In this document: one piece after another, positions 21,713 through 32,000 of the stretch
How positions within the stretch are numbered: the first letter of the stretch is position 1
How the letters are laid out: the number at the start of each line of letters is the position of its first letter
NCBI GenBank assembly: GCA_025839675.1
Contig: CP104013.1
Span: 1,380,001 to 1,412,000, forward strand
Source: Candidatus Lokiarchaeum ossiferum
GTDB lineage: Archaea; Asgardarchaeota; Lokiarchaeia; Sigyniarchaeales; Promethearchaeaceae
Direction: 5' to 3'
Length of the DNA: 32,000 nucleotides
Program-made: the position numbers and the translations under genes
The notes under the pieces: generated by a model
What the model saw: the letters and a program-made list of their open reading frames with translations, nothing else
Told to the model about the DNA's origin: nothing
Database searches by the model: none

Positions 21713-22441
21713 TTATTTTTTCTTTTTACTCGCCAATTTACTCAGAATCATGAAAATTCGTAGCACCATTCCAACAAAATCGAAGAAAATATCAATAACA
21801 GCCATCATCCAATAACCACGTTTTATTTTCCCCGGTAAGGTTGCGGCATCAAAGACCATCACTCCAAATAAATAGCCAAACATTAGTAAATCGACGACAA
21901 TATTATTTTCTCCTTCTCCAAATATGGCAATTATAACTACTTCTAACACTCCAAATAGAATACCAAATAACAAGAAATACCAACAATAATGTTTAGAAAT
22001 CTTGTCTTTCAATAAAATGCCCAAGGCCATGGCTCCACCAGTGGCAAAAACACCAATTAATGCACTCGTTATGAAAAGACTTCGGGTTAATTCTTCACCC
22101 AAATCTTCCGCTACAAAGGATACAACAAACGACAACAAAACTCCAGATCCCAGTGCAGAAATGAAGAACAATACCATGGCAATTAAATTAACTCGTAAGA
22201 AAGTAAAAATCATGAGTAAAATCCAAACACCTACAAACACACATAATGCAATGATTATTTGAGGAATGGAAAAAGTGGTGAGATCTAAAGCAGGAGCACC
22301 GAACAATCCACTGAAATAGAGAGTAGATAATAACCAAAGAAGTGCTGCAACAAACATCGTTGGTAAAACTTTAGAATAAAATTCGTTGTCAAGAGCAGGT
22401 TGTTTACCTTTTACATGACCAAAATAATAAAAATTTCCCAT
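21713..22441 (-). CDS. Bax-inhibitor-1/YccA (TMBIM)-like membrane protein
   Basis: 242 aa, about 7 TM. The C-terminal MAVIDIFFDFVGMVLRIFMIL followed by a Lys-rich tail resembles the BI-1 family C-terminus. Confidence 0.6.
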   Translation of the reverse strand: MGNFYYFGHVKGKQPALDNEFYSKVLPTMFVAALLWLLSTLYFSGLFGAPALDLTTFSIPQIIIALCVFVGVWILLMIFTFLRVNLIAMVLFFISALGSGVLLSFVVSFVAEDLGEELTRSLFITSALIGVFATGGAMALGILLKDKISKHYCWYFLLFGILFGVLEVVIIAIFGEGENNIVVDLLMFGYLFGVMVFDAATLPGKIKRGYWMMAVIDIFFDFVGMVLRIFMILSKLASKKKK

Positions 22442-22737
22442 AATGTGAGCTAATTCTTGGAAAATTTAATTGTTTTGATCGCTGAAAAGAAGGAAAGAAT
22501 TGAATTCCCCTTATTGGAAAAGAGACATCATTTATGTTTTTTAAACTATAAAAAAAATGGAATAAGAAGACCTTTTCTTAAAATATGCTATAATCCTTTC
22601 AAAACACATTTTTTTCCATTAACATACTCAATTGAAAGATAATTTTTATTTTTAGATTAAAGCAAACTTTGAAAAGCTTAATATTAATAATATAAATATC
22701 AGAGAAACGATTGATTTTTTTTGGTGTAAATTAACTC

Positions 22738-24108
22738 ATGTTATTTGAAAAATCTACTGTCCATTTTGAAATTACTTCTGAGTGCAACCATCGATGTATT
22801 TTTTGTTACAATCAACATCAGGTTTTTGACAATTCAAAAAATAAAGAATACATATCTTTCGATTTTTATAAGCAAATTATCGACAAGTTCGTTGAACTGA
22901 AAGTTAAGAATGTTATTATCACCGGTGGAGAACCATTTCTCCACCCTGAAATTCTTCCTTTTATTGAATATGCAAAAAAAAGGAAATTAGATATAAGTAT
23001 CAATACAAATGGATCGCTTTTAACACCTGAAATTAACCAATTTTTAGCGAACTACAAAATTCGCCTACTTGTTTCTCTCCATGGCACTAATTCTTTATTT
23101 GAAAAATTAGTTCAAGTTAAAACCTTTGATCGAGTTCGAAAAAATCTAATTGATGCACGCAAAAATTATAATCTAAATATTTCTCTACAATTTGTTCCAA
23201 TTAAAATTAATTTCCATCATATCCGAGAAGTTGCACAATTTGCAAAAGAGTTGGGTTGTTATCTACAAGTAGGAAGATACACGGATCCTTGTGGAATATC
23301 AGAAAGTACTTCATCCTTTGGATTAACGATTAAAGAATACCATTCTCTTTTCAATGAAATTCTCAAAATAAAAAGAGAATTAAAAGTACCCATTGGACTC
23401 GGAAATGGTATCCCATTTTGTATGATTGATGAAGAAAACCTCTCCAATGACATCCTGAATCTATTTAATCGCTGTGGGTGTTCTTTGGGAAAATCAATTT
23501 GGGCTTTGAGTCCAGAAGGTAACATTCGGGCTTGTCCGCAATTAAGTAATACAATTGGAAATATATTAACGGATTCTATCAAAATCCTATCTCAAAAAAT
23601 TGAAGATTTATTTAATTCATCAGTAATCACTCCCGAAATATGTCAAGATTGCGGAATTCGAATACTTTGTTGTGGAGGATGCAGAGCAAGCGGATTGGTA
23701 AGAAATGGTGCAATTAATTCATTTGATCCCCTATTTCCTCTTGATGAAGAGAGGCGAAATAAATCAATTGCATTAATTAAGCAAAAAATCAAAATTCTTG
23801 GAGAGAAAGAGAACCAATCATTATCAAGTGAATTTGATGAACAAAGCATTTTGACTGCAAATCGAGAGCTATTTCGAAGAAATTTAAATAGTTACGTTAT
23901 TTTAAGAGGATTTGGAAAAAATGGATTCATATATAAAGAGTTAAATGAATCTGCCTTGGCGATATTGAATGAATTCAAACATCCAAGTTCTGTGAAATCA
24001 GTTCTAATAAAATTAAGCAAAGATTTCTCTATTGGAATCGAAGAAATTAGAGGAGACGTTTTCAATTGCATTGAAAATTTTCTTAAAGCAGACATTTTAC
24101 AATTCTGA
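22738..24108 (+). CDS. Radical SAM enzyme with a full SPASM domain and a PqqD-like C-terminal extension (putative peptide maturase)
   Basis: CX3CX2C at C16/C20/C23 (CNHRCIFC, nt 22783-22806) and the GGEPFL SAM-binding motif. The SPASM signature is read exactly: C248-X12-G-X4-C266, then C302-X2-C305-X5-C311-X3-C315 (nt 23473-23682). Residues ~385-456 resemble PqqD/RRE. Confidence 0.9.
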   Translation: MLFEKSTVHFEITSECNHRCIFCYNQHQVFDNSKNKEYISFDFYKQIIDKFVELKVKNVIITGGEPFLHPEILPFIEYAKKRKLDISINTNGSLLTPEINQFLANYKIRLLVSLHGTNSLFEKLVQVKTFDRVRKNLIDARKNYNLNISLQFVPIKINFHHIREVAQFAKELGCYLQVGRYTDPCGISESTSSFGLTIKEYHSLFNEILKIKRELKVPIGLGNGIPFCMIDEENLSNDILNLFNRCGCSLGKSIWALSPEGNIRACPQLSNTIGNILTDSIKILSQKIEDLFNSSVITPEICQDCGIRILCCGGCRASGLVRNGAINSFDPLFPLDEERRNKSIALIKQKIKILGEKENQSLSSEFDEQSILTANRELFRRNLNSYVILRGFGKNGFIYKELNESALAILNEFKHPSSVKSVLIKLSKDFSIGIEEIRGDVFNCIENFLKADILQF

Positions 24109-24163
24109 TCTCAATTTCTTGTCGTAATCCGTAGACACTCAAAAAATAAAAACAATTTTTATA

Positions 24164-25669
24164 TCAAATTGATTTTTCATTTTGTATCAAATAATCCCGA
24201 TTACCAAGATATGTTAAAAATTCACTCAAATCCGCTTTAACTTCACCCATTTCATTTTCTTCCAAATCAAAAGATTGTTTCAACTGAGTCAAAATATCAG
24301 CTAATGACCAGTAATTTAATTCAAGTAAAATTTTAGTAATTTCATATGCAACATCATTAATGAAAAAAGCGGTTTGTTTTTTCTCATCTAAAAAATAATA
24401 TGAATTTTCATTAACATGTTTTAATAACACATGTTTTGGAAAGGAATATGTTTGCGTTTCTATTAATTTGAAATCTATATTCTCATCAGAGTAATTAATT
24501 TCAGATTCACTATTGAATATGGTTTTGGGAATTTGTTGTTTTCCCGATATGATTAAATATACGTCCCGAATAATGTTATTAATATCGCCTCCCGACCAAA
24601 TTGAAAGAAAAAAGAATGTAGTGCTTATTACTGCGTAATATACCATTGTAAACAAAAATAACTCAAATTTTTCGTTGAAAAGATTTCCACTTCTAACTGA
24701 AATAATTGAGAGCACTGTGGGAAATAAAATAACGAGATTACACCACAAGGTACCCATTATAGCGATTTTTATTCTTTCTTTTGGAGTAAAAAGCAAAAGT
24801 GGAATTTGAACAGTCTCAACATTAATAAGAGAATTCAACTTTGAAATATAAGACCCAAATCCGCCATACATTTTGGCAGCAATTAAATGACCCCATTCAT
24901 GAAATATGGAAAGAAATAGAGATAAAAGTAAATAGGTTGAGTAATTAAAAGCATCAGAAAAAATATATGAAATTGAAATTGGATTGTTCGTAAAAAACCA
25001 AAAAAATTCCAAAAATGTTGCAGAAAGTAATAATATCCAATAGAGATTCTTAATTTTTTTTTTCCAGAAAAGTTCTGATAAATAATTGAATAGTTTTGTT
25101 CTAAAAGTCATTCGAAAATGAATTGCCAGAATAAGGTTTGGAGAAACACCTAAGATATTGAAAGCGGGCCAATCTTTGTTAATTGCGAATTCTATTAATT
25201 GATTTAAAATAAACCAGCTATTTCGAGTTATTAAGAAAAGAGATACAAATGATAAGGAAAATATCCGTTTATCAAAAGAATAAATTACATATAAACCAAT
25301 ACCAAGTAAAATTGAAAAGAAATGAAGAAGGAGGACAAGAATTCTTTTATTTTTCTTTAAAAGGATAGAATCAATATGAATAAGAATTTGAGAATAAGAT
25401 AAAATCGACCAAACTCCATAAATAGAGAATAGGATATTTTTGATTTTAAACGAATTATCCCCAATAGAAAGCACTTTATCCAAAAAGATTTGAGACATTA
25501 TGAAAAAAACTAAAAATCCAAGCAATGAAAATGCGAATATTCTCCAAAAGGGAGGTTTAATTATCTTCTTAAACTGAAAAAGACCATAAAACCACAACAT
25601 AATTGGAATTGTGAACGCAAAAGAGGAGAAAATGAAAATACGGAAAATTATATATAATCCAGAATCCAT
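24164..25669 (-). CDS. Polytopic membrane protein with an HExxH motif (M50/site-2-protease-like) and a C-terminal PqqD-like soluble domain
   Basis: 501 aa, about 10 or more hydrophobic helices. HEWGH at residues 257-261 (nt 24887-24901) sits at the end of a hydrophobic helix. The C-terminal ~90 aa are hydrophilic with a PqqD-like pattern (FFINDVAYEITKILLELNYWSLADILTQLKQSFDLEENEMGEVKADLSEFLTYLGNRDYLI). Confidence 0.6.
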   Translation of the reverse strand: MDSGLYIIFRIFIFSSFAFTIPIMLWFYGLFQFKKIIKPPFWRIFAFSLLGFLVFFIMSQIFLDKVLSIGDNSFKIKNILFSIYGVWSILSYSQILIHIDSILLKKNKRILVLLLHFFSILLGIGLYVIYSFDKRIFSLSFVSLFLITRNSWFILNQLIEFAINKDWPAFNILGVSPNLILAIHFRMTFRTKLFNYLSELFWKKKIKNLYWILLLSATFLEFFWFFTNNPISISYIFSDAFNYSTYLLLSLFLSIFHEWGHLIAAKMYGGFGSYISKLNSLINVETVQIPLLLFTPKERIKIAIMGTLWCNLVILFPTVLSIISVRSGNLFNEKFELFLFTMVYYAVISTTFFFLSIWSGGDINNIIRDVYLIISGKQQIPKTIFNSESEINYSDENIDFKLIETQTYSFPKHVLLKHVNENSYYFLDEKKQTAFFINDVAYEITKILLELNYWSLADILTQLKQSFDLEENEMGEVKADLSEFLTYLGNRDYLIQNEKSI

Positions 25670-25742
25670 TGTAGTGAAACCGATCTCCCACGTTCATAAT
25701 ATTTTGATAAAATTATAGAAAAAAAGTTATTGATTTCTTGGG

Positions 25743-25967
25743 TTATTCTCCAGAAACATCCCCAGGAATATCGAAACAATCGCAATCACAATTACAATAA
25801 CAATCATCACAATTGGCCGAATAACAATCACAATTTGCTGGGTCTTGGCAGTTGCTTGCATAACAAACTCCAGAAACTTTGCCACCTGGGTCATTCATCT
25901 GACAATCACATGAAGGATTAAATTCTGAAATTATATTACGAATTACGGGTTTTGTCCACTTCTTCAT
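25743..25967 (-). CDS. Cys/Asp-rich small peptide, candidate RiPP precursor
   Basis: 74 aa: MKKWTKPVIRNIISEFNPS then a core with 12 Cys and 10 Asp (CDC, CYC, CNCDCDC). GGAG lies about 11 nt upstream of the ATG. It sits directly upstream of, and co-oriented with, the HExxH membrane protein gene. Confidence 0.7.
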   Translation of the reverse strand: MKKWTKPVIRNIISEFNPSCDCQMNDPGGKVSGVCYASNCQDPANCDCYSANCDDCYCNCDCDCFDIPGDVSGE

Positions 25968-26130
25968 TTTTTCTTATTCTCCAAGATTTTTCGAATTAAA
26001 AATCTGTTTATACTATCAAAATAATGAATTGTCTATATAAAATTTTTCCAACATTAGTACATATTTAGGGCATTTTTATAGCTTCCAAATACATTTTTAA
26101 TTTTGAAAAATTAATAATAGTGATTTTAAA
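25968..26130. promoter_or_regulatory. Divergent promoter region between the precursor gene (minus) and the TPR gene (plus)
   Basis: 163 bp of AT-rich spacer with several TATA-like elements (CTATATAAAA at 26032-26041, TTTTTATA at 26073-26080, GTTTATAC at 26006-26013). Assigning them to either gene is a guess. Confidence 0.3.
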
Positions 26131-28392
26131 TTGTTAACTGATTTTGATGGACACAAGATTCGTTTTTCAAATGAATTAAAAAAAAAAATTGAACTGAAAT
26201 ATAAAGATATAGTGAATCATGATATCACACACCAATATCGCGAGAAATTTAATATATTATCCGATTTGACACTTCAAAATAAACGAGATGAAACCGAAAT
26301 TGCATATTTAAAGGCAAAATATGCATATATCTTGTATGAAATGCAGTATTTTGAATCCAATCCGCATTTTAAAAATAGAAAAGTAATCTTCCAAAATGAT
26401 AATATTGGTGAATTAATTTGGTATCTAACTTATTTATGTTCCAGAAAAATTACTCCAGAGGTAGACGAAATTCATGATTATTTAAAAGAGAAATTGGAAC
26501 ATTCAACAGATAACCTTCTTAATCTTGAATTTCTATATCCTCATTTCTTAATATTAAGTGATCAGCGTAAATTTTCACATGTATTTGATGAATTTTTGAA
26601 TATCAAGTCGGAAATTCTTCTTCTTTCAGAAGAATTTAGATTAACAAAAGCATTGCTCTATTCTTGTGCAATAAATATTATACCTTATATTGAAAAAGAA
26701 TCAGAAATAATCGATGAAATTTTTGTTGAAATAGAAAAAGTAATTAATTTTCAAAAAGACCTTTTTGGATATTGTGAGATTCAAAGATATTTAATTAGTA
26801 CAGAATTATTATCTCCTGAAAAAGAGGAAACTAATCGCAATCAACTCAAAAAATTACTTTCTTATTATTTTGGGATTGGAACTAAGCTCATTCAAATGAA
26901 AGTTACAATGAATTTAGGACTTCTTGATTATTATAATGAGAATTATATTTCGAGCGTGAAATATCAACAACAGGCACTTCAATTAGCCAAAGATTTAAAA
27001 AGTATTAAATTTCAATCTTATATATCCTATTTGACTGGATTATCACTAGTTAAGTTGGGGAATTATTTGGAAGCTAAGCAACATTTTTTATCAGCTCTGG
27101 AAGGAAATCGTCTTCAAGCAAATGAAATTCAAATAATTAATATTTTCGAAGCATTAGGAAATCTGTCAGAAGATATAGGTCAATTTGATAAGGCAGAAGA
27201 ATTTTATAATTCCGAAATTGAACTTGCTAAAAAACATAATGTTTTATCATCTATTGCTGCAGGGAACTTGAATTTAGCAATATTAAAGCTTTCTCAAGGA
27301 AATCTTTTAGAAGTCTTGAATTTATTACAGGAAGCAAATCATTATGCTCAAGATACATCCATGGATAATTTTATTCTTTCCATTATTAGTTATCAAGCTA
27401 AACTTTCATTTATGCAGGGAAATTATCAGAAATCATTAACATTATTAGAAAAAGGAAAAGAAAAATTAAACCAAAATTCATCTCCCGATGAATTGGCAAA
27501 TTTTTACCTTCATGAAGCAGAAATACGATTGGGAATTGGTCAAGTTAATATTTCAAAAAAAATCTTACTCTCAGTTTACAATAAACAAGTTCGGGGGGAA
27601 TCATTATCAACTTTTAGTGAAATTAATGAAATTCTTGGATCAATTCATTTCTTTGAAAATAAAACAGATGAAGCAAAAAAAATACTCATCGAAACTTATG
27701 AAAAATTGGCAGAAAAGGGATCTTTTGGAGGTATTTTCCAATCAGTTTTGGTACATCTCCTCGAATTTTGCATGATTAACAAAGATGAAAAAGAATACAA
27801 CAATTGGAAAGACATAATGATGAGCCATTTAGGTACCCATAAAATTTCATTGTTATATGGAAATCAAATAAAACTCATATTTTTAGAATTAATGCATAAA
27901 TACAATTCAAATTCCTTAGATCTCACAGCCTTAAATGATTTTGAGACCACTTTGAAAGAAAAACAATTTCTAAATCTTAAGTATAAAGTGAACTTGCTCA
28001 AAATTCGTTTTTTAGTTGACTCAGATCAAATCAAACAAGCGCTTGGTGTTATTCAACAGCTTGAATGCTCAATCGCAGACAATCCTAACTTAATCTTCGA
28101 AATTGAAATAAAACTCATTCAAGGATTAATATTAAGTCGAGATTTTGATTTTGAACAAGCACGAGAAAAAATATCTTCATTAACAAGTTTATTACAAAAA
28201 TATAATCTGAAAAGATATATTGATCGGCAACAAGAAATCACCGATTTAATTCAAAAACATTGTGAATTATTTTCAGATATATATGATTTCTCTGAGCAAA
28301 AAGACACTCAAAATAGGCAAAAAGAAAATTTGAAGGTACCATTGAATGTTATTCATCAATATTTAGATGAATCTATTAAGATCTTATCTTAG
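26131..28392 (+). CDS. Large TPR-repeat protein
   Basis: 753 aa with repeated TPR-like units (NYISSVKYQQQALQLAKDL, GNYLEAKQHFLSALE, GQFDKAEEFYNSEIELAKK, QGNLLEVLNLLQEANHYA, QGNYQKSLTLLEKGKE). I found no Walker A motif. The start is TTG at 26131, and the first in-frame ATG is at 26341. Confidence 0.7.
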   Translation: MLTDFDGHKIRFSNELKKKIELKYKDIVNHDITHQYREKFNILSDLTLQNKRDETEIAYLKAKYAYILYEMQYFESNPHFKNRKVIFQNDNIGELIWYLTYLCSRKITPEVDEIHDYLKEKLEHSTDNLLNLEFLYPHFLILSDQRKFSHVFDEFLNIKSEILLLSEEFRLTKALLYSCAINIIPYIEKESEIIDEIFVEIEKVINFQKDLFGYCEIQRYLISTELLSPEKEETNRNQLKKLLSYYFGIGTKLIQMKVTMNLGLLDYYNENYISSVKYQQQALQLAKDLKSIKFQSYISYLTGLSLVKLGNYLEAKQHFLSALEGNRLQANEIQIINIFEALGNLSEDIGQFDKAEEFYNSEIELAKKHNVLSSIAAGNLNLAILKLSQGNLLEVLNLLQEANHYAQDTSMDNFILSIISYQAKLSFMQGNYQKSLTLLEKGKEKLNQNSSPDELANFYLHEAEIRLGIGQVNISKKILLSVYNKQVRGESLSTFSEINEILGSIHFFENKTDEAKKILIETYEKLAEKGSFGGIFQSVLVHLLEFCMINKDEKEYNNWKDIMMSHLGTHKISLLYGNQIKLIFLELMHKYNSNSLDLTALNDFETTLKEKQFLNLKYKVNLLKIRFLVDSDQIKQALGVIQQLECSIADNPNLIFEIEIKLIQGLILSRDFDFEQAREKISSLTSLLQKYNLKRYIDRQQEITDLIQKHCELFSDIYDFSEQKDTQNRQKENLKVPLNVIHQYLDESIKILS

Positions 28393-28409
28393 AGAAATTA
28401 CCAAGCGTG

Positions 28410-28419
28410 TTTTTTTTTT
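28410..28419 (+). terminator. T10 run 18 nt after the TPR gene stop
   Basis: GCGTG followed by T10, read directly. Confidence 0.35.
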
Positions 28420-28517
28420 ATACCCACTTTATTCCAATTTATTATGCTACTTCTGGTTTATTCCAATAAAAATATAAAAAAATGGAGGATAAATAGCAAT
28501 TTATATTAATATCTAAT

Positions 28518-29264
28518 TTAAGAAAAACAAAAATCAGTTAACTGAGAGATATTTTTTTGAAAGATAGCATTATCCTTCAAAATGTGTTTTCCCTGAGCAA
28601 TATTGAAAGCGATTTCGTCATAATAATTCATATAAAGAAAATTAGCAATCTTCATTTCCGATGAAAATTTTTTTTCCCAATTCGAAATTAGGCCACCCAT
28701 TGCATCTACATTTGGAATTTGGTTCCAGAAAACAGCAAATTCTTTTCCTAAAGCAAATGTTTTTTGATAAACATCTTGAACCATCTTTAAAGTACCTTTA
28801 AAATTGTTTAATTCTGCTCGTAAAATTAAAACAATTTTATTTGCGATTAAGCCATTATTAATTTGAATAAATCCCCATCCTGGACTGGAATCAATTATAC
28901 AATAATCAAATTGAGAGGATAGATTTCGTAAGTCACCTAAAAATAATTTCAATCGTTTTCCATGATAAGATTGGTCAACAGAAAAAACTTTATCATTGAG
29001 AGAAAAATTATAACCACAACAAATGACTGAAAATCCATGATTAGTTTTTGAGATTGCCTTGGATAAATCACAATTACCTTCATAATAGTCGTTAAAAGTA
29101 AATTTTGGGTTTACTTTCAAAATTTCAATAAATGAGGGCATACTAATATCAGTTTCAATTAATAATACCCGCTTATTTTTATTTGCTAAATTCGTTGCAA
29201 GGTTAAGTGCTATTAGAGATTTACCAGTTCCCCCGCGAAATGAATGTACTGTTATTCTTTTCAT
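28518..29264 (-). CDS. ParA/MinD-family P-loop ATPase
   Basis: Deviant Walker A HSFRGGTGKS (nt 29217-29243), ETD switch-like LLIETD, and Walker B CIIDSSPG. 248 aa. Confidence 0.8.
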   Translation of the reverse strand: MKRITVHSFRGGTGKSLIALNLATNLANKNKRVLLIETDISMPSFIEILKVNPKFTFNDYYEGNCDLSKAISKTNHGFSVICCGYNFSLNDKVFSVDQSYHGKRLKLFLGDLRNLSSQFDYCIIDSSPGWGFIQINNGLIANKIVLILRAELNNFKGTLKMVQDVYQKTFALGKEFAVFWNQIPNVDAMGGLISNWEKKFSSEMKIANFLYMNYYDEIAFNIAQGKHILKDNAIFQKNISQLTDFCFS

Positions 29265-29405
29265 AAATTTATCACCAAAGAATATTTGATGCGGATTATT
29301 TTTTTAATGATTATTTAAATGGACACAATTGTATGAAGTTGGAGTCAAAATCGGGTTCATTTATTGAGAAATTAATTTATACCTTTATATTCTTATGGGT
29401 ATTGA

Positions 29406-30005
29406 TTATGGAATCCAATATATTTTCTCCCCCTTATAATCCATACTCTCAATATATCCATCAGCTATAAGAAGGTCTAAACCAGCGAGAATAATATTTT
29501 CTTCCCTCTTTGTATTTTCGATTATGTTCTTTAGGGTTATTTTACCAGAATTATCATCTAATTCGACTAGTATCATTGCAATTTCTCGACAGAAAGGATT
29601 TAAATCCGTTAAAATTTCATAAAGATTTTCCCGTAAATTCTTGCGCTCTTTGTCAATTTCATTTAGAAAATTAGAAATGGAAGTATCTACAAATTGCTGT
29701 ATTGTTTTAATGGAATATTTTTTTCGAAATGAAGGAGAATTGATATTTTTCGTTATAGAATTTGCGAGATCCTTCTCTAAATAAATATTATACACATCAT
29801 AGAGAGTATTGGTTTTGCGTATTGCATCGCGAATAACGTTAGTATTTTGAATATTTTGGACGCTTGTACTATTTTTCACAGCAATTTTTTCCTTCAAAGA
29901 TTGAAAGTGCACAAGATCGTCATCCTTCAAATCAATTCGAACAATAATTTTCGAATTTGAGAGGTCTTTATCCACAGGTTTTTTGGCCAATTTTTTCCCT
30001 TCCAT
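29406..30005 (-). CDS. Hypothetical protein, possibly DNA-binding (RHH-like N-terminus, wHTH-like C-terminus)
   Basis: KIIVRIDLKDDDLVHFQSLKEKI ... NVIRDAIRK has a strand-helix-helix pattern. The C-terminal ILAGLDLLIADGYIESMDYKGEKIYWIP resembles a recognition helix plus wing. This is pattern only; I recognise no family. Confidence 0.4.
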   Translation of the reverse strand: MEGKKLAKKPVDKDLSNSKIIVRIDLKDDDLVHFQSLKEKIAVKNSTSVQNIQNTNVIRDAIRKTNTLYDVYNIYLEKDLANSITKNINSPSFRKKYSIKTIQQFVDTSISNFLNEIDKERKNLRENLYEILTDLNPFCREIAMILVELDDNSGKITLKNIIENTKREENIILAGLDLLIADGYIESMDYKGEKIYWIP

Positions 30006-30172
30006 AAATTATGTAAGTAAAGGTCATATTGATATATAAATATGTTACAATAGTACGATAGATTTTTGATGGAAGCATAATTTGTACTAAGTTCATACCT
30101 TTCACCCCATAAGAAAATTACTAAAAAAAAACCAATTAACTAAAAAAGAGAAAATTTGAGGAATAAAAGAAA

Positions 30173-31456
30173 TTATTCATATCGAATTGAATCAATTGGA
30201 GATAATCTAGCAGCTTTACGTGCTGGGATAAATCCAAAGAAAACTGAAATACAAAGTCCAAATAAAACAGTTTTAATAATCATTAGAAATGAAAAGATAG
30301 GAGAAAATTGGATATCAAGGGGAGAACTATTATTTTCATTACCACTAAGCTGCATATATGCAGAATCCCTATGATTGATGAAATTCGTTGCACCAAATGC
30401 GAATAAAATTCCAAGGGCTACACCCAAGATTGAACCTAAAAACCCAATTAATAAAGATTCAAATAGAAAAATACCAAAAATCTCTCGATCTTTAGTACCG
30501 AGAGCTTTTAAAATCCCAATTTCATGAGTTCTCTCCAGAACGGAAATCGTCATAACATTCATAATTCCAATTCCAGCAACAAGTAATGAGATTCCCCCAA
30601 TCGCAGCAAGAAACAAAGTAATTATTGTTGTTGCAGTATCTATAGTTCCACGCATTTCTTGTAAAGTTATAATGCCGACGTTTTCGCCAAATATTTCTTT
30701 GATTTCCAATGAAACAGTAGAAATAGTTTCATTGGAATCATCAGTGAGCTTAACTAAAATCATAGAACATTCATCAGTTTTGAAAAGTTTTTCAGCAAAA
30801 TGAATGTCCATATAAATTGCATCATCAGAGGGAGCACCAAAAGTATCATATGTTCCGATAAATTCTAAGACTCCACTAATTTGTTGTGAAGAACTATAAA
30901 TTTTTGTTGAGGAAGATGTCCGTTCAGCCCATTGTAACGTCAAATTATCACCAATATTTCCGATCGAACTTTCATTCCCCCAAGGAAAAAAGAAATCATG
31001 ACCCAAAATAATAGAATCATTCAGCGTTTCAAGTCCAGACCCATTTCTGAATTTAAAAGTATTAGGATAAAGCTGAGAATATTTTTCAAAATCAATCCCA
31101 TATACAACCGTCAACACATCTGTGCCATTTAAAGACAAATAAACCTGTTTTTGAAGCACCGCCACAGCAGTTTCTACTAAAGTAAGATTTTCAACCAATG
31201 AAGAATCGTTGATGTATAGGGAGACTTCAAAATCGGTTCGAGACATAATCGAAGTTTGCTTTGCTATAGTTATGGTATCTGTGGAAAATCCTTTATCAAA
31301 TTCATCATTTATGGTTTGTTCCAAACCTTCACCTAAAGCGAGTAAGGAAATAATAGCCGCAATACCAACCACAACACCTATAGTAGTAAACATAGCTCTT
31401 TTTTTACGGCTAATTAATGTAATTCCAGAATATCCAAGGATATCACGAATTTTCAT
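30173..31456 (-). CDS. ABC transporter permease, FtsX/MacB-type
   Basis: An N-terminal TM helix, a ~230-aa extracytoplasmic domain, then three C-terminal TM helices with EIGILKALGTKDREIFGIFLFESLLIGFLGSILGVALG (FtsX-like signature). The start overlaps the upstream ATPase stop by 4 nt (ATGA). Confidence 0.85.
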   Translation of the reverse strand: MKIRDILGYSGITLISRKKRAMFTTIGVVVGIAAIISLLALGEGLEQTINDEFDKGFSTDTITIAKQTSIMSRTDFEVSLYINDSSLVENLTLVETAVAVLQKQVYLSLNGTDVLTVVYGIDFEKYSQLYPNTFKFRNGSGLETLNDSIILGHDFFFPWGNESSIGNIGDNLTLQWAERTSSSTKIYSSSQQISGVLEFIGTYDTFGAPSDDAIYMDIHFAEKLFKTDECSMILVKLTDDSNETISTVSLEIKEIFGENVGIITLQEMRGTIDTATTIITLFLAAIGGISLLVAGIGIMNVMTISVLERTHEIGILKALGTKDREIFGIFLFESLLIGFLGSILGVALGILFAFGATNFINHRDSAYMQLSGNENNSSPLDIQFSPIFSFLMIIKTVLFGLCISVFFGFIPARKAARLSPIDSIRYE

Positions 31457-32000
31457 GTCATCTTCTCTCCATTTTGAGTATCATCTATTATTTGCCCATC
31501 TACAAGATGTAAAATTCGTTCACATTTTTGAGCAATTTCTTGATCATGAGTAACCATTATGGTTGTAATACCTTTTGCGTCATGAATTTTGCGAATTAAA
31601 CTCATTAGTTCATCCCGAGTTGTAGTATCGACATTTCCTGTTGGTTCGTCTAACAATAAAAAAAAAGGTTCTTGACCAAGGGCTCGTGCAATAGCAACGC
31701 GTTGTTGTTCGCCTCCACTTAATTCATTATTTTTATGCTTCACCCGATCTGAAAGCCCTACAAAAGATAATAATTCTAAAGCCTTTTGTTTACGTATCCG
31801 ATGAGAAAAATCACCTTGAACTGTCATAGCAAGTTCAACATTTTGGAGTGCTGTGAAACGAGGAACTAAATTTAAATTTTGAAATACAAATCCTATCCTT
31901 TGTCGTAATTTCGCTAATTCATTCCTCCTCATAATTGAAACCGGAATATTATTTATGAAAATTTCGCCTTCAGTTGGGAGGTCTAGGGCACCAATAAGAT
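31453..32000 (-). CDS. ABC transporter ATP-binding protein (MacB/LolD-like), 5' end beyond the window
   Basis: Q-loop IGFVFQNLNLVP, signature LSGGEQQRVAIARAL, Walker B FFLLLDEPTGNVD and H-loop VTHD. The frame stays open to nt 32000 (…LIGALDLPTEGEIFINNIPVSIM…), so Walker A lies outside the window. Confidence 0.9.
   Translation of the reverse strand, partial: LIGALDLPTEGEIFINNIPVSIMRRNELAKLRQRIGFVFQNLNLVPRFTALQNVELAMTVQGDFSHRIRKQKALELLSFVGLSDRVKHKNNELSGGEQQRVAIARALGQEPFFLLLDEPTGNVDTTTRDELMSLIRKIHDAKGITTIMVTHDQEIAQKCERILHLVDGQIIDDTQNGEKMT

Follow-up and report, generated by a model that had tools for sequence, protein, structure and literature searches.

What use an Asgard archaeon could make of a peptide of only 74 amino acids (aa), 12 of them Cys and 10 of them Asp, is the question raised by a stretch of 32,000 nucleotides (nt) from Candidatus Lokiarchaeum ossiferum (GenBank assembly GCA_025839675.1, contig CP104013.1, positions 1,380,001 to 1,412,000 of the forward strand). 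This whole stretch is called the window, its positions are numbered from its first letter, and the strain is referred to as B35. The gene encoding the peptide, NEF87_001138, is best explained as the precursor gene of a ribosomally synthesised peptide that is modified after translation (RiPP), lying in a cassette of four genes that also encodes a radical S-adenosylmethionine (rSAM) enzyme with a SPASM domain, a polytopic membrane protein and a tetratricopeptide repeat (TPR) protein. This explanation as a whole, including the pathway proposed below, is given a probability of about 70%. That the peptide is a precursor modified by the rSAM enzyme is, taken by itself, very probable, and that the modification consists specifically of thioethers between Cys and Asp or Asn is a tentative proposal with somewhat less than even odds.

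The peptide gene, its leader and its core

The sequence-only reading of this region had placed the peptide between positions 25743 and 25967. These coordinates are correct, the coding strand being the minus strand, read from 25967 to 25743; the same interval read on the plus strand gives stops and a nonsense frame, and this candidate was rejected. A script count returned the same residues as the earlier hand count, with Cys at 20, 22, 35, 40, 46, 48, 53, 56, 58, 60, 62 and 64, Asp at 21, 26, 42, 47, 54, 55, 61, 63, 66 and 70, no Cys among residues 1-19, and the C-X3-D spacing confined to C22-D26 and C62-D66. Asp or Asn is found at position -1 or +1 of 11 of the 12 Cys, the exception being C35, which lies inside a conserved C-[F/Y] element. 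Cys makes up 16% of the peptide, compared with 0.97% in the window's open reading frames (ORFs) that are 180 aa or longer. When 300 first-order Markov replicas of the window (33% G+C) were used as a chance model, not one of the 5,962 simulated ORFs with lengths of 60-120 aa had as many as 12 Cys together with 10 Asp, and the highest Cys count was 9.

Among 5.8 billion proteins, only one other similar to this peptide was found, an 80-aa peptide encoded on a metagenome contig (L002) with the same gene order. A third version, MKKWSKPKITNIITEFNSEGCNTCNCYDGPGGRTLCFRTDCDGPCFVGE, of 49 aa, was reached via the neighbouring enzyme and occupies the same position in CP163304 (locus L004), the genome of strain B36, a member of the same species; both strains were enriched from the same canal sediment (bioRxiv 10.64898/2026.02.13.705702). 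The ORF is intact and in the same position in both relatives, neither absent nor frameshifted, which the sequence-only reading had named as a refuting condition. Between B35 and L002, six of the seven codon changes in residues 1-23 are synonymous, as are all three in the conserved CDCDCFDIP block. These comparative data (conservation, mostly synonymous change and presence in three genomes) exclude the reading of the ORF as a repeat artefact, and show that NEF87_001138 is a real coding gene under purifying selection.

The three versions differ very unevenly along their length. The first 17-19 residues are nearly invariant: B35 and L002 share 18 of 19, and the segment is still recognisable in B36. 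The cores measure 55, 61 and 29 aa and contain 12, 12 and 6 Cys in B35, L002 and B36, respectively. The sequence-only reading had pointed to the Cys/Asp register, set against leader variability, as the feature to follow in relatives; it is the leader that is conserved, and the core, including its number of Cys, that varies. The distal core contains a 6-nt tandem repeat, that is, two codons of the Cys-Asp type, and slippage by two codons may add or remove Cys-Asp units and so explain the variation in core length.

Strain variation at the locus

The genomes of B35 and B36 differ here in a sharply bounded manner. The DNA flanking the variable block is 98.3-98.5% identical between the two strains (blastn), and every flanking gene shows 97-100% protein identity; inside the block, protein identity is 60.5% for the rSAM enzyme, 45% for the membrane protein, 45% for the peptide and 50% for the TPR protein. 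The breakpoints are placed at about 22480, in the intergenic DNA ahead of the rSAM gene, and at about 28454, just past the stop codon of the TPR gene. All four B35 genes are closer to those of the more distant L002 (59-64%) than to those of the conspecific B36 (34-50%), and the flanking genes follow the organism tree, the two conspecifics being 99% identical and the outgroup about 84%. Since the four-gene tree conflicts with the organism tree, the block has been swapped, or kept since long ago, as one allele. Exactly four genes diverge as a block, and cassette membership is thus defined independently of annotation: on this genome comparison, the rSAM, membrane-protein, peptide and TPR genes are one co-inherited cassette.

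This co-inheritance, together with the nearly invariant leader and the changing core, bears out the earlier view of the peptide as a leader-plus-core precursor tied to the rSAM/SPASM enzyme. Block-wise allelic replacement offers an annotation-free way to define the members of a gene cluster, and could be reused elsewhere.

A fourth Lokiarchaeal allele of the enzyme (P0005) is carried by a 1,981-bp contig, L005 (ENA ERZ23498405), which is too short to include the peptide; over its C-terminal part it is 60% identical to the B35 enzyme, 66% to that of B36 and 50% to that of L002. Three or four Lokiarchaeal alleles are therefore known. In the JGI metagenomes, an alignment of the peptide leaders gave no match, and the three Lokiarchaeal rSAM enzymes retrieved only distant relatives (20-24% identity) and no new allele.

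Several genes lie around the block. Abutting the left breakpoint is a multi-pass membrane protein of 242 aa (21713-22441, minus strand), which matches no family and is 100% identical in B35 and B36. On the other side, positions 28518-32000 (2810-6487 in L002, 15956-19581 in L004) encode a MinD/ParA-like ATPase, a 199-aa protein and a MacB/FtsX-type ABC transporter, which stand beside the cassette in all three genomes. With 97-99.5% identity between the two strains, these three fall outside the block that varies. In L002, an extra helix-turn-helix gene and a 55-aa ORF are inserted between the MinD-like and TPR genes.

Few Asgard archaea are in culture, and L. ossiferum, which carries the cluster, is one of them. 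Two sympatric strains with different alleles, as well as proteome data, exist for it; the product and its role are therefore directly testable.

The enzyme, its partners and a proposed pathway

The features on which the argument depends are collected in the table. The rSAM enzyme carries the CX3CX2C motif of the SAM cluster at residues 16-23, so that its core starts directly, with no N-terminal extension, and a full SPASM motif, CX2CX5CX3C, at residues 302-315; the SPASM model also matches in its relatives. Seven Cys beyond the SAM cluster are invariant across the enzyme subfamily. At the C-terminus there is an extension of about 100 residues, of which positions ~371-450 resemble PqqD, a RiPP recognition element (RRE); the B36 copy scores 28.4 bits, above the Pfam cut-off of 23.4, and the copy in the window 17.9. 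In the structural model of the enzyme (pLDDT, the predicted local distance difference test, 83.9), this extension shows beta-strands and then three helices. The nearest solved structures are those of SkfB, anSME, CteB, SuiB and PqqE, the first three of which act on Cys.

Table. Features of the window and related loci in other genomes (L numbers)
Feature	Position	Strand	Description
Peptide gene NEF87_001138, probable precursor	25743..25967	-	74 aa; translation MKKWTKPVIRNIISEFNPSCDCQMNDPGGKVSGVCYASNCQDPANCDCYSANCDDCYCNCDCDCFDIPGDVSGE (stop)
Peptide leader, residues 1-19	25911-25967	-	Part of NEF87_001138
Cys/Asp-rich core, residues 20-74	25746-25910	-	Part of NEF87_001138
Peptide stop codon	25743-25745	-	
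6-nt tandem repeat in distal core	25776..25806		5.2 copies (Tandem Repeats Finder)
Radical SAM/SPASM maturase (probable)	22738..24108	+	456 aa; Pfam Radical_SAM, E 1e-23; converges on membrane-protein gene
Membrane protein	24164..25669	-	501 aa, polytopic; 73 nt downstream of the peptide gene, same strand
TPR protein	26131..28392	+	753 aa, soluble; Pfam MalT-like TPR region 254-465; diverges from peptide gene
T7 run	25719..25725	-	Terminator-like (archaeal); 18-24 nt past peptide stop, before membrane-protein gene
Divergent intergenic region, peptide/TPR	25968..26130		BRE/TATA-like GAAAAATTTTATATA, TATA part 26034-26042, minus strand
Strain-variable block	22481..28453		About 6 kb; ~65% DNA identity or unalignable between B35 and B36 (blastn)
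Cryptobacteroides	L006/7		Adjacent Cys-rich small ORF
Gut metagenome	L008/9		Adjacent Cys-rich small ORF, ...KSCDCDCNCDNCDNGYDCNCNSCDCKNT
Four rumen Bacteroidales genomes	L012-L015		One or two peptides each
L099			Adjacent Cys-rich small ORF
Nanobdellota archaeon GCA_051819745.1	L100 1950-5320		Cys-rich peptide, ~220-aa soluble HExxH protein, rSAM/SPASM
L101	1-6137		Peptide, ~220-aa soluble HExxH protein, rSAM/SPASM; two tandem copies of the whole set

The membrane protein has six hydrophobic segments, and two invariant motifs, HEWGH (257-261) and WSGGD (358-362), adjoin hydrophobic segments. Its C-terminal part (~414-496) is a PqqD-like domain (Pfam PqqD, E=0.002), which showed no similarity in BLASTP to the corresponding domain of the rSAM enzyme. 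The LDG context canonical for Peptidase M50 is absent. A profile of the protein gave no match against PDB sequences, and an exhaustive phmmer search of 1.84 billion representatives returned only three matches, namely the protein itself and two fragments. It is proposed to be a putative leader peptidase, an export partner, or both. The TPR protein contains no hydrophobic segments and may be a chaperone, a receptor or an immunity protein.

As regards expression, the T7 run between the peptide and membrane-protein genes is replaced by T11 runs at the equivalent site in L002 and L004, and it may set the ratio of precursor to enzyme. Upstream of the peptide, GGAG at 25979-25982 lies 11 nt before the ATG; this and the TATA-like element are common to B35 and L002, and the element, which resembles a B recognition element (BRE) with a TATA box, is not shared with L004. 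A scan for sigma-70 promoters and terminators, which is not applicable to an archaeal host, gave counts at the level of shuffled sequence.

A pathway can be proposed in which the Cys-free leader (residues 1-19) would first be bound by the PqqD-like domain at the C-terminus of the rSAM enzyme. The enzyme would then modify the Cys-rich core repeatedly by means of SAM-derived radicals, the likeliest reaction being the formation of a bond between the sulfur of a Cys and a carbon in the side chain of a nearby Asp or Asn, as in thioethers of the ranthipeptide/QhpC type, which would give a densely cross-linked product. Later, the co-transcribed membrane HExxH protein would recognise the leader through its own PqqD-like domain and remove it, perhaps together with export. 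The TPR protein would act as a specificity partner, interacting with a variable component. The chemical steps, the protease activity and the role of the TPR protein are those that we infer.

Thioethers are favoured for four reasons. The closest solved relatives of the enzyme by sequence (SkfB, anSME and CteB) act on Cys. The subfamily has seven conserved auxiliary-cluster Cys, as is also reported for CteB, QhpD and Tte1186 (PMC10352776). In the peptides, Asp and Asn are co-enriched with Cys at about 1:1 and adjoin it. Finally, PapB, which forms Cys-Asp and Cys-Glu thioethers, accepts Cys-Xn-Asp with n = 0-6 (PMC9413430), so that such bonds are enzymatically feasible. The last point also bears on the sequence-only reading, according to which the adjacency of Cys and Asp called for a different ring topology or a different chemistry: the tolerance of PapB weakens the second option, and the adjacency would imply unusually small rings, a new topology at most.

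Relatives of the enzyme in other organisms place the peptide in a wider family of loci. The best matches outside Lokiarchaeum are 25-32% identical and have the same architecture, including the C-terminal extension; the nearest belong to Bacteroidales, to another bacterium and to a DPANN archaeon. A Cys-rich small ORF, in most cases rich in Cys, Asp and Asn, adjoins the enzyme gene in every relative locus with readable flanks (Table), and no such ORFs were found at the 76 generic rSAM loci among the 80 loci listed with an 8-sequence rSAM alignment. When the search was started in reverse, from one of the bacterial peptides, an rSAM gene was found ending 3 nt upstream. The loci L100 and L101 carry compact sets with one or two rSAM/SPASM genes, and their soluble HExxH protein suggests that enzymes of this subfamily generally have a metalloprotease partner.

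A profile built from twelve peptides retrieved at least 217 clusters, all of 40-99 aa, unnamed, and mostly from rumen and gut Bacteroidales. In the 120 peptides listed (P0081-P0200), a common leader, ...MVAYDFSNLxLQENSKxNC[F/Y], precedes hypervariable cores containing 26% Cys, 22% Asp and 13% Asn, with a median (D+N)/C ratio of 1.3 and with 80% of the Cys directly followed by Asp or Asn. These cores often end in GW or DW. At L012-L015 and L097/L098, one or two copies usually follow the rSAM/SPASM gene and precede a small DUF4760-like membrane protein. Behind the peptide cluster at L097 (6942-11189) and L014 (7048-9392) come proteins with a formylglycine-generating enzyme (FGE)-sulfatase domain and a CsgG-like protein. 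Peptide Cys is the target of FGE-family enzymes, and these FGE-domain proteins may be pathway members or unrelated lipoproteins.

The archaeal and bacterial systems are linked because their enzymes are related and the neighbouring peptides have a parallel composition, and not through peptide homology. In MAFFT alignments, a pair of hydrophobic residues followed by x-[D/E]-F-(x)-N, a C-[F/Y]-x-C-[D/E] element and a KKxKP start were seen; the likeness of IISEFN to VVYDFSN, taken as a candidate for homology, failed its controls and was rejected. The resemblance of the N-terminus to the M-K-K-x-x-K-P leaders of rSAM/SPASM substrates, which had been suggested from the sequence, is not significant either, KK.KP being present in 13 of the 120 bacterial leaders and the alignment scores between Lokiarchaeal and bacterial leaders barely exceeding those of shuffles.

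No curated NCBIfam model reaches its cut-off for any of the enzymes or peptides, Lokiarchaeal or bacterial. At least 217 clusters of peptides rich in Cys, Asp and Asn, and an enzyme subfamily in which the rSAM core is joined by a SPASM domain and, at the C-terminus, a recognition domain, stand without a curated model, and they could supply new cross-linking enzymes. A survey of RiPPs in archaea includes the rSAM-type clusters of Asgard and further archaea as predictions only, the sole characterised products that it names being lanthipeptides (PMC12144867). Our literature search found no paper on the motif strings of the peptide, on the locus or its family, or dealing with RiPPs of L. ossiferum; the supplement of the B36 preprint (bioRxiv 10.64898/2026.02.13.705702) does not list the locus tags of the cassette, and a RiPP-mining paper on Bacteroidales concerns a different rSAM system.

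Competing explanations and known systems

Several observations weigh against the explanation of the locus as a RiPP cassette of this type. The chemistry is read from composition and from distant enzyme relatives: the models of known maturases are matched far below their cut-offs (PapB 72 versus 340 bits, SCIFF 64.5 versus 425, QhpD 66 versus 453), and the fold search with the model of the rSAM enzyme confirms its class and cannot tell apart thioether formers, C-C cross-linkers and anSME, a Cys oxidase. Asp is not strictly conserved, the B36 core having Asn or Thr at Asp sites of B35 and only 6 Cys. A profile of the 120 bacterial peptides scores the Lokiarchaeal ones at -8.6, -7.6 and -1.3 bits, the level of composition-matched shuffles of the same peptides. 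The assignment of a protease depends on two motifs and on Peptidase_M50 (PF02163) matches of three orthologues, with 13.0, 19.6 and 13.0 bits, all below the gathering score of 27.2, and the single-sequence AlphaFold model of the membrane protein is unusable (pLDDT 41.8). As for the TPR gene, its co-inheritance could be hitch-hiking within a recombined block.

One alternative concerns function and fits either chemistry. According to it, a modified, secreted peptide and a TPR receptor or immunity protein would serve strain-specific recognition, in signalling, kin discrimination or antagonism. Such a block-allelic pattern resembles that of pherotype and bacteriocin/immunity loci, and TPR proteins are the peptide receptors of bacterial RRNPP systems. 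The conflict between the four-gene and organism trees and the MacB/FtsX-type exporter nearby point the same way, and so does the finding that exactly four genes are replaced together when two sympatric strains of one sediment are compared (bioRxiv 10.64898/2026.02.13.705702). However, no DNA-binding or output domain is recognisable in the TPR protein, the transporter is 99% conserved and outside the block, the conserved part of the peptide is the leader and not the core, and the alleles known are only three or four. The neighbouring transporter set may still serve export. On balance, a role in recognition is considered unlikely, if well worth keeping in mind.

A bolder version would unite this role with the chemistry proposed above, nearly every Cys being joined to an adjacent Asp or Asn in very small vicinal rings and the four genes being ancient exchangeable alleles for strain-specific recognition. 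We regard this combination as improbable; if true, the ring type would be new to natural ranthipeptides, and the system would be the first of its kind in the lineage closest to eukaryotes.

As the main alternative, the precursor could be modified by the rSAM enzyme through another chemistry, in which Cys would be oxidised, to a thiooxazole as by SbtM or to an aldehyde-type product as by anSME, and the result would be a metal-binding peptide, a metallophore, and not a knotted one. SbtM, an rSAM/SPASM enzyme, converts peptide Cys or Sec to a thio(seleno)oxazole (PMC9204691), and of the NCBIfam models, that of its family, GeoRSP_rSAM, scores highest with the bacterial relatives, at about 99 bits against a cut-off of 400. 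In addition, the structure of anSME is one of the two or three nearest that are solved, and the very high content of Cys and carboxylates suits metal binding. All these family matches are, however, far below their cut-offs and none is diagnostic; the substrate motif of SbtM is Gly-Cys/Sec (PMC9204691), whereas D, N, F, Y or E recurrently follows Cys here; and a nearly 1:1 pairing of Cys with Asp or Asn is more simply explained by donor-acceptor pairs. A chemistry of this kind is thus judged rather unlikely.

Two further explanations are very improbable. In the first, the peptide would be a plain, unmodified metal buffer similar to metallothioneins, with its neighbours there by coincidence. Metallothioneins typically show C-x-C motifs and a Cys content such as the 16% found here, and the peptide, annotated as hypothetical in GenBank, bears the name 'Metallothionein' in UniRef. 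Composition seems to have given rise to this label, which probably misleads: the peptide matches nothing in Pfam or NCBIfam at E <= 0.01, a conserved, Cys-free N-terminus of 19 residues would have no role in such a protein, the core is hypervariable between conspecific strains (12 versus 6 Cys), the gene co-varies with an rSAM enzyme and two PqqD-like domains, and related enzymes elsewhere are always beside such peptides.

In the second, the variable block would be an anti-virus defence island with the peptide as an accessory. Strain-variable islands are often defence loci, and the TPR protein of B36 weakly matches the PADLOC 'TPR' model (E 2.7e-4). The two strains differ mainly in defence and mobile genes, and the defence systems of both are listed in a published PADLOC analysis (bioRxiv 10.64898/2026.02.13.705702). 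Against this, PADLOC finds at the cassette only a generic similarity of the radical-SAM core to viperins (pVip, residues 8-120), with no system-level match and nothing for the peptide, and viperins have neither SPASM nor PqqD domains.

The idea of a chance reading frame across a hexanucleotide repeat, suggested by the 31 nt of the core that the repeat spans and by the ORFs that the opposite strand also carries, can practically be discarded, given a composition never reached in the simulated ORFs, the annotation of a gene in GenBank, and an intact frame with mostly synonymous changes in three genomes despite about 65% DNA identity.

The RiPP cassette remains the preferred explanation, and its place among known systems can be considered. 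With freyrasin (PapA/PapB), it shares a leader-plus-core peptide with many Cys and Asp and an rSAM/SPASM enzyme with a recognition domain. The enzyme is not of the PapB family, as it scores 72.0 bits, and its bacterial relatives 75-79, in a model (NCBIfam NF047865) with a cut-off of 340. Only 2 of the 12 Cys are in C-X3-D here, C-[D/N] or [D/N]-C being dominant and Cys being mostly spaced by one or two residues; moreover, the recognition domain is C-terminal, the accessory genes encode a membrane HExxH/PqqD fusion and a TPR protein, and the host is an archaeon.

The maturases of SCIFF/thermocellin (CteA/CteB) and of sactipeptides (SkfB, AlbA) are among the closest structures and sequences, and they share the use of Cys as donor and, as reported for CteB, the seven auxiliary Cys. 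SCIFF and sactipeptide maturases carry the RRE at the N-terminus, whereas the Lokiarchaeal subfamily starts directly with the SAM-cluster motif; the SCIFF maturase model (TIGR03974) is matched at the low score given above, and no SCIFF peptide model matches the peptide. QhpD and QhpC provide the classical example of Cys-to-Asp/Glu thioethers made by an rSAM/SPASM enzyme in a small Cys-rich polypeptide. In this case, too, the model score is far too low, there are no dehydrogenase subunits near the cassette, and the peptide, unlike QhpC, has a leader and a hypervariable core and is no enzyme subunit.

SbtM/GeoRSP systems likewise combine an rSAM/SPASM enzyme with the Cys of a small peptide (PMC9204691), and theirs is the best curated model for the bacterial relatives. 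Scores of about 67-100 bits are obtained against the cut-off of 400, neither selenocysteine nor a Gly-Cys motif is present, and the product of SbtM is a thiooxazole and not a crosslink. With metallothioneins, the likeness is limited to small size, very high Cys content and C-x-C motifs, the conserved Cys-free leader, the enzyme partners, the richness in Asp and Asn and the hypervariability between strains being different. ComQXPA pherotypes and agr groups offer a parallel of another kind, in which a peptide, its processing genes and a putative partner diverge as a block in nearly identical genomes; there is no homology with the cassette, where no kinase or DNA-binding receptor has been identified. 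In sum, judged from sequence, what sets this system apart from the ranthipeptide, SCIFF and QhpC-type pathways is its predicted C-terminal recognition domain, a membrane HExxH/PqqD fusion seen in Lokiarchaeum only, a co-varying TPR gene, and its polymorphism as a block.

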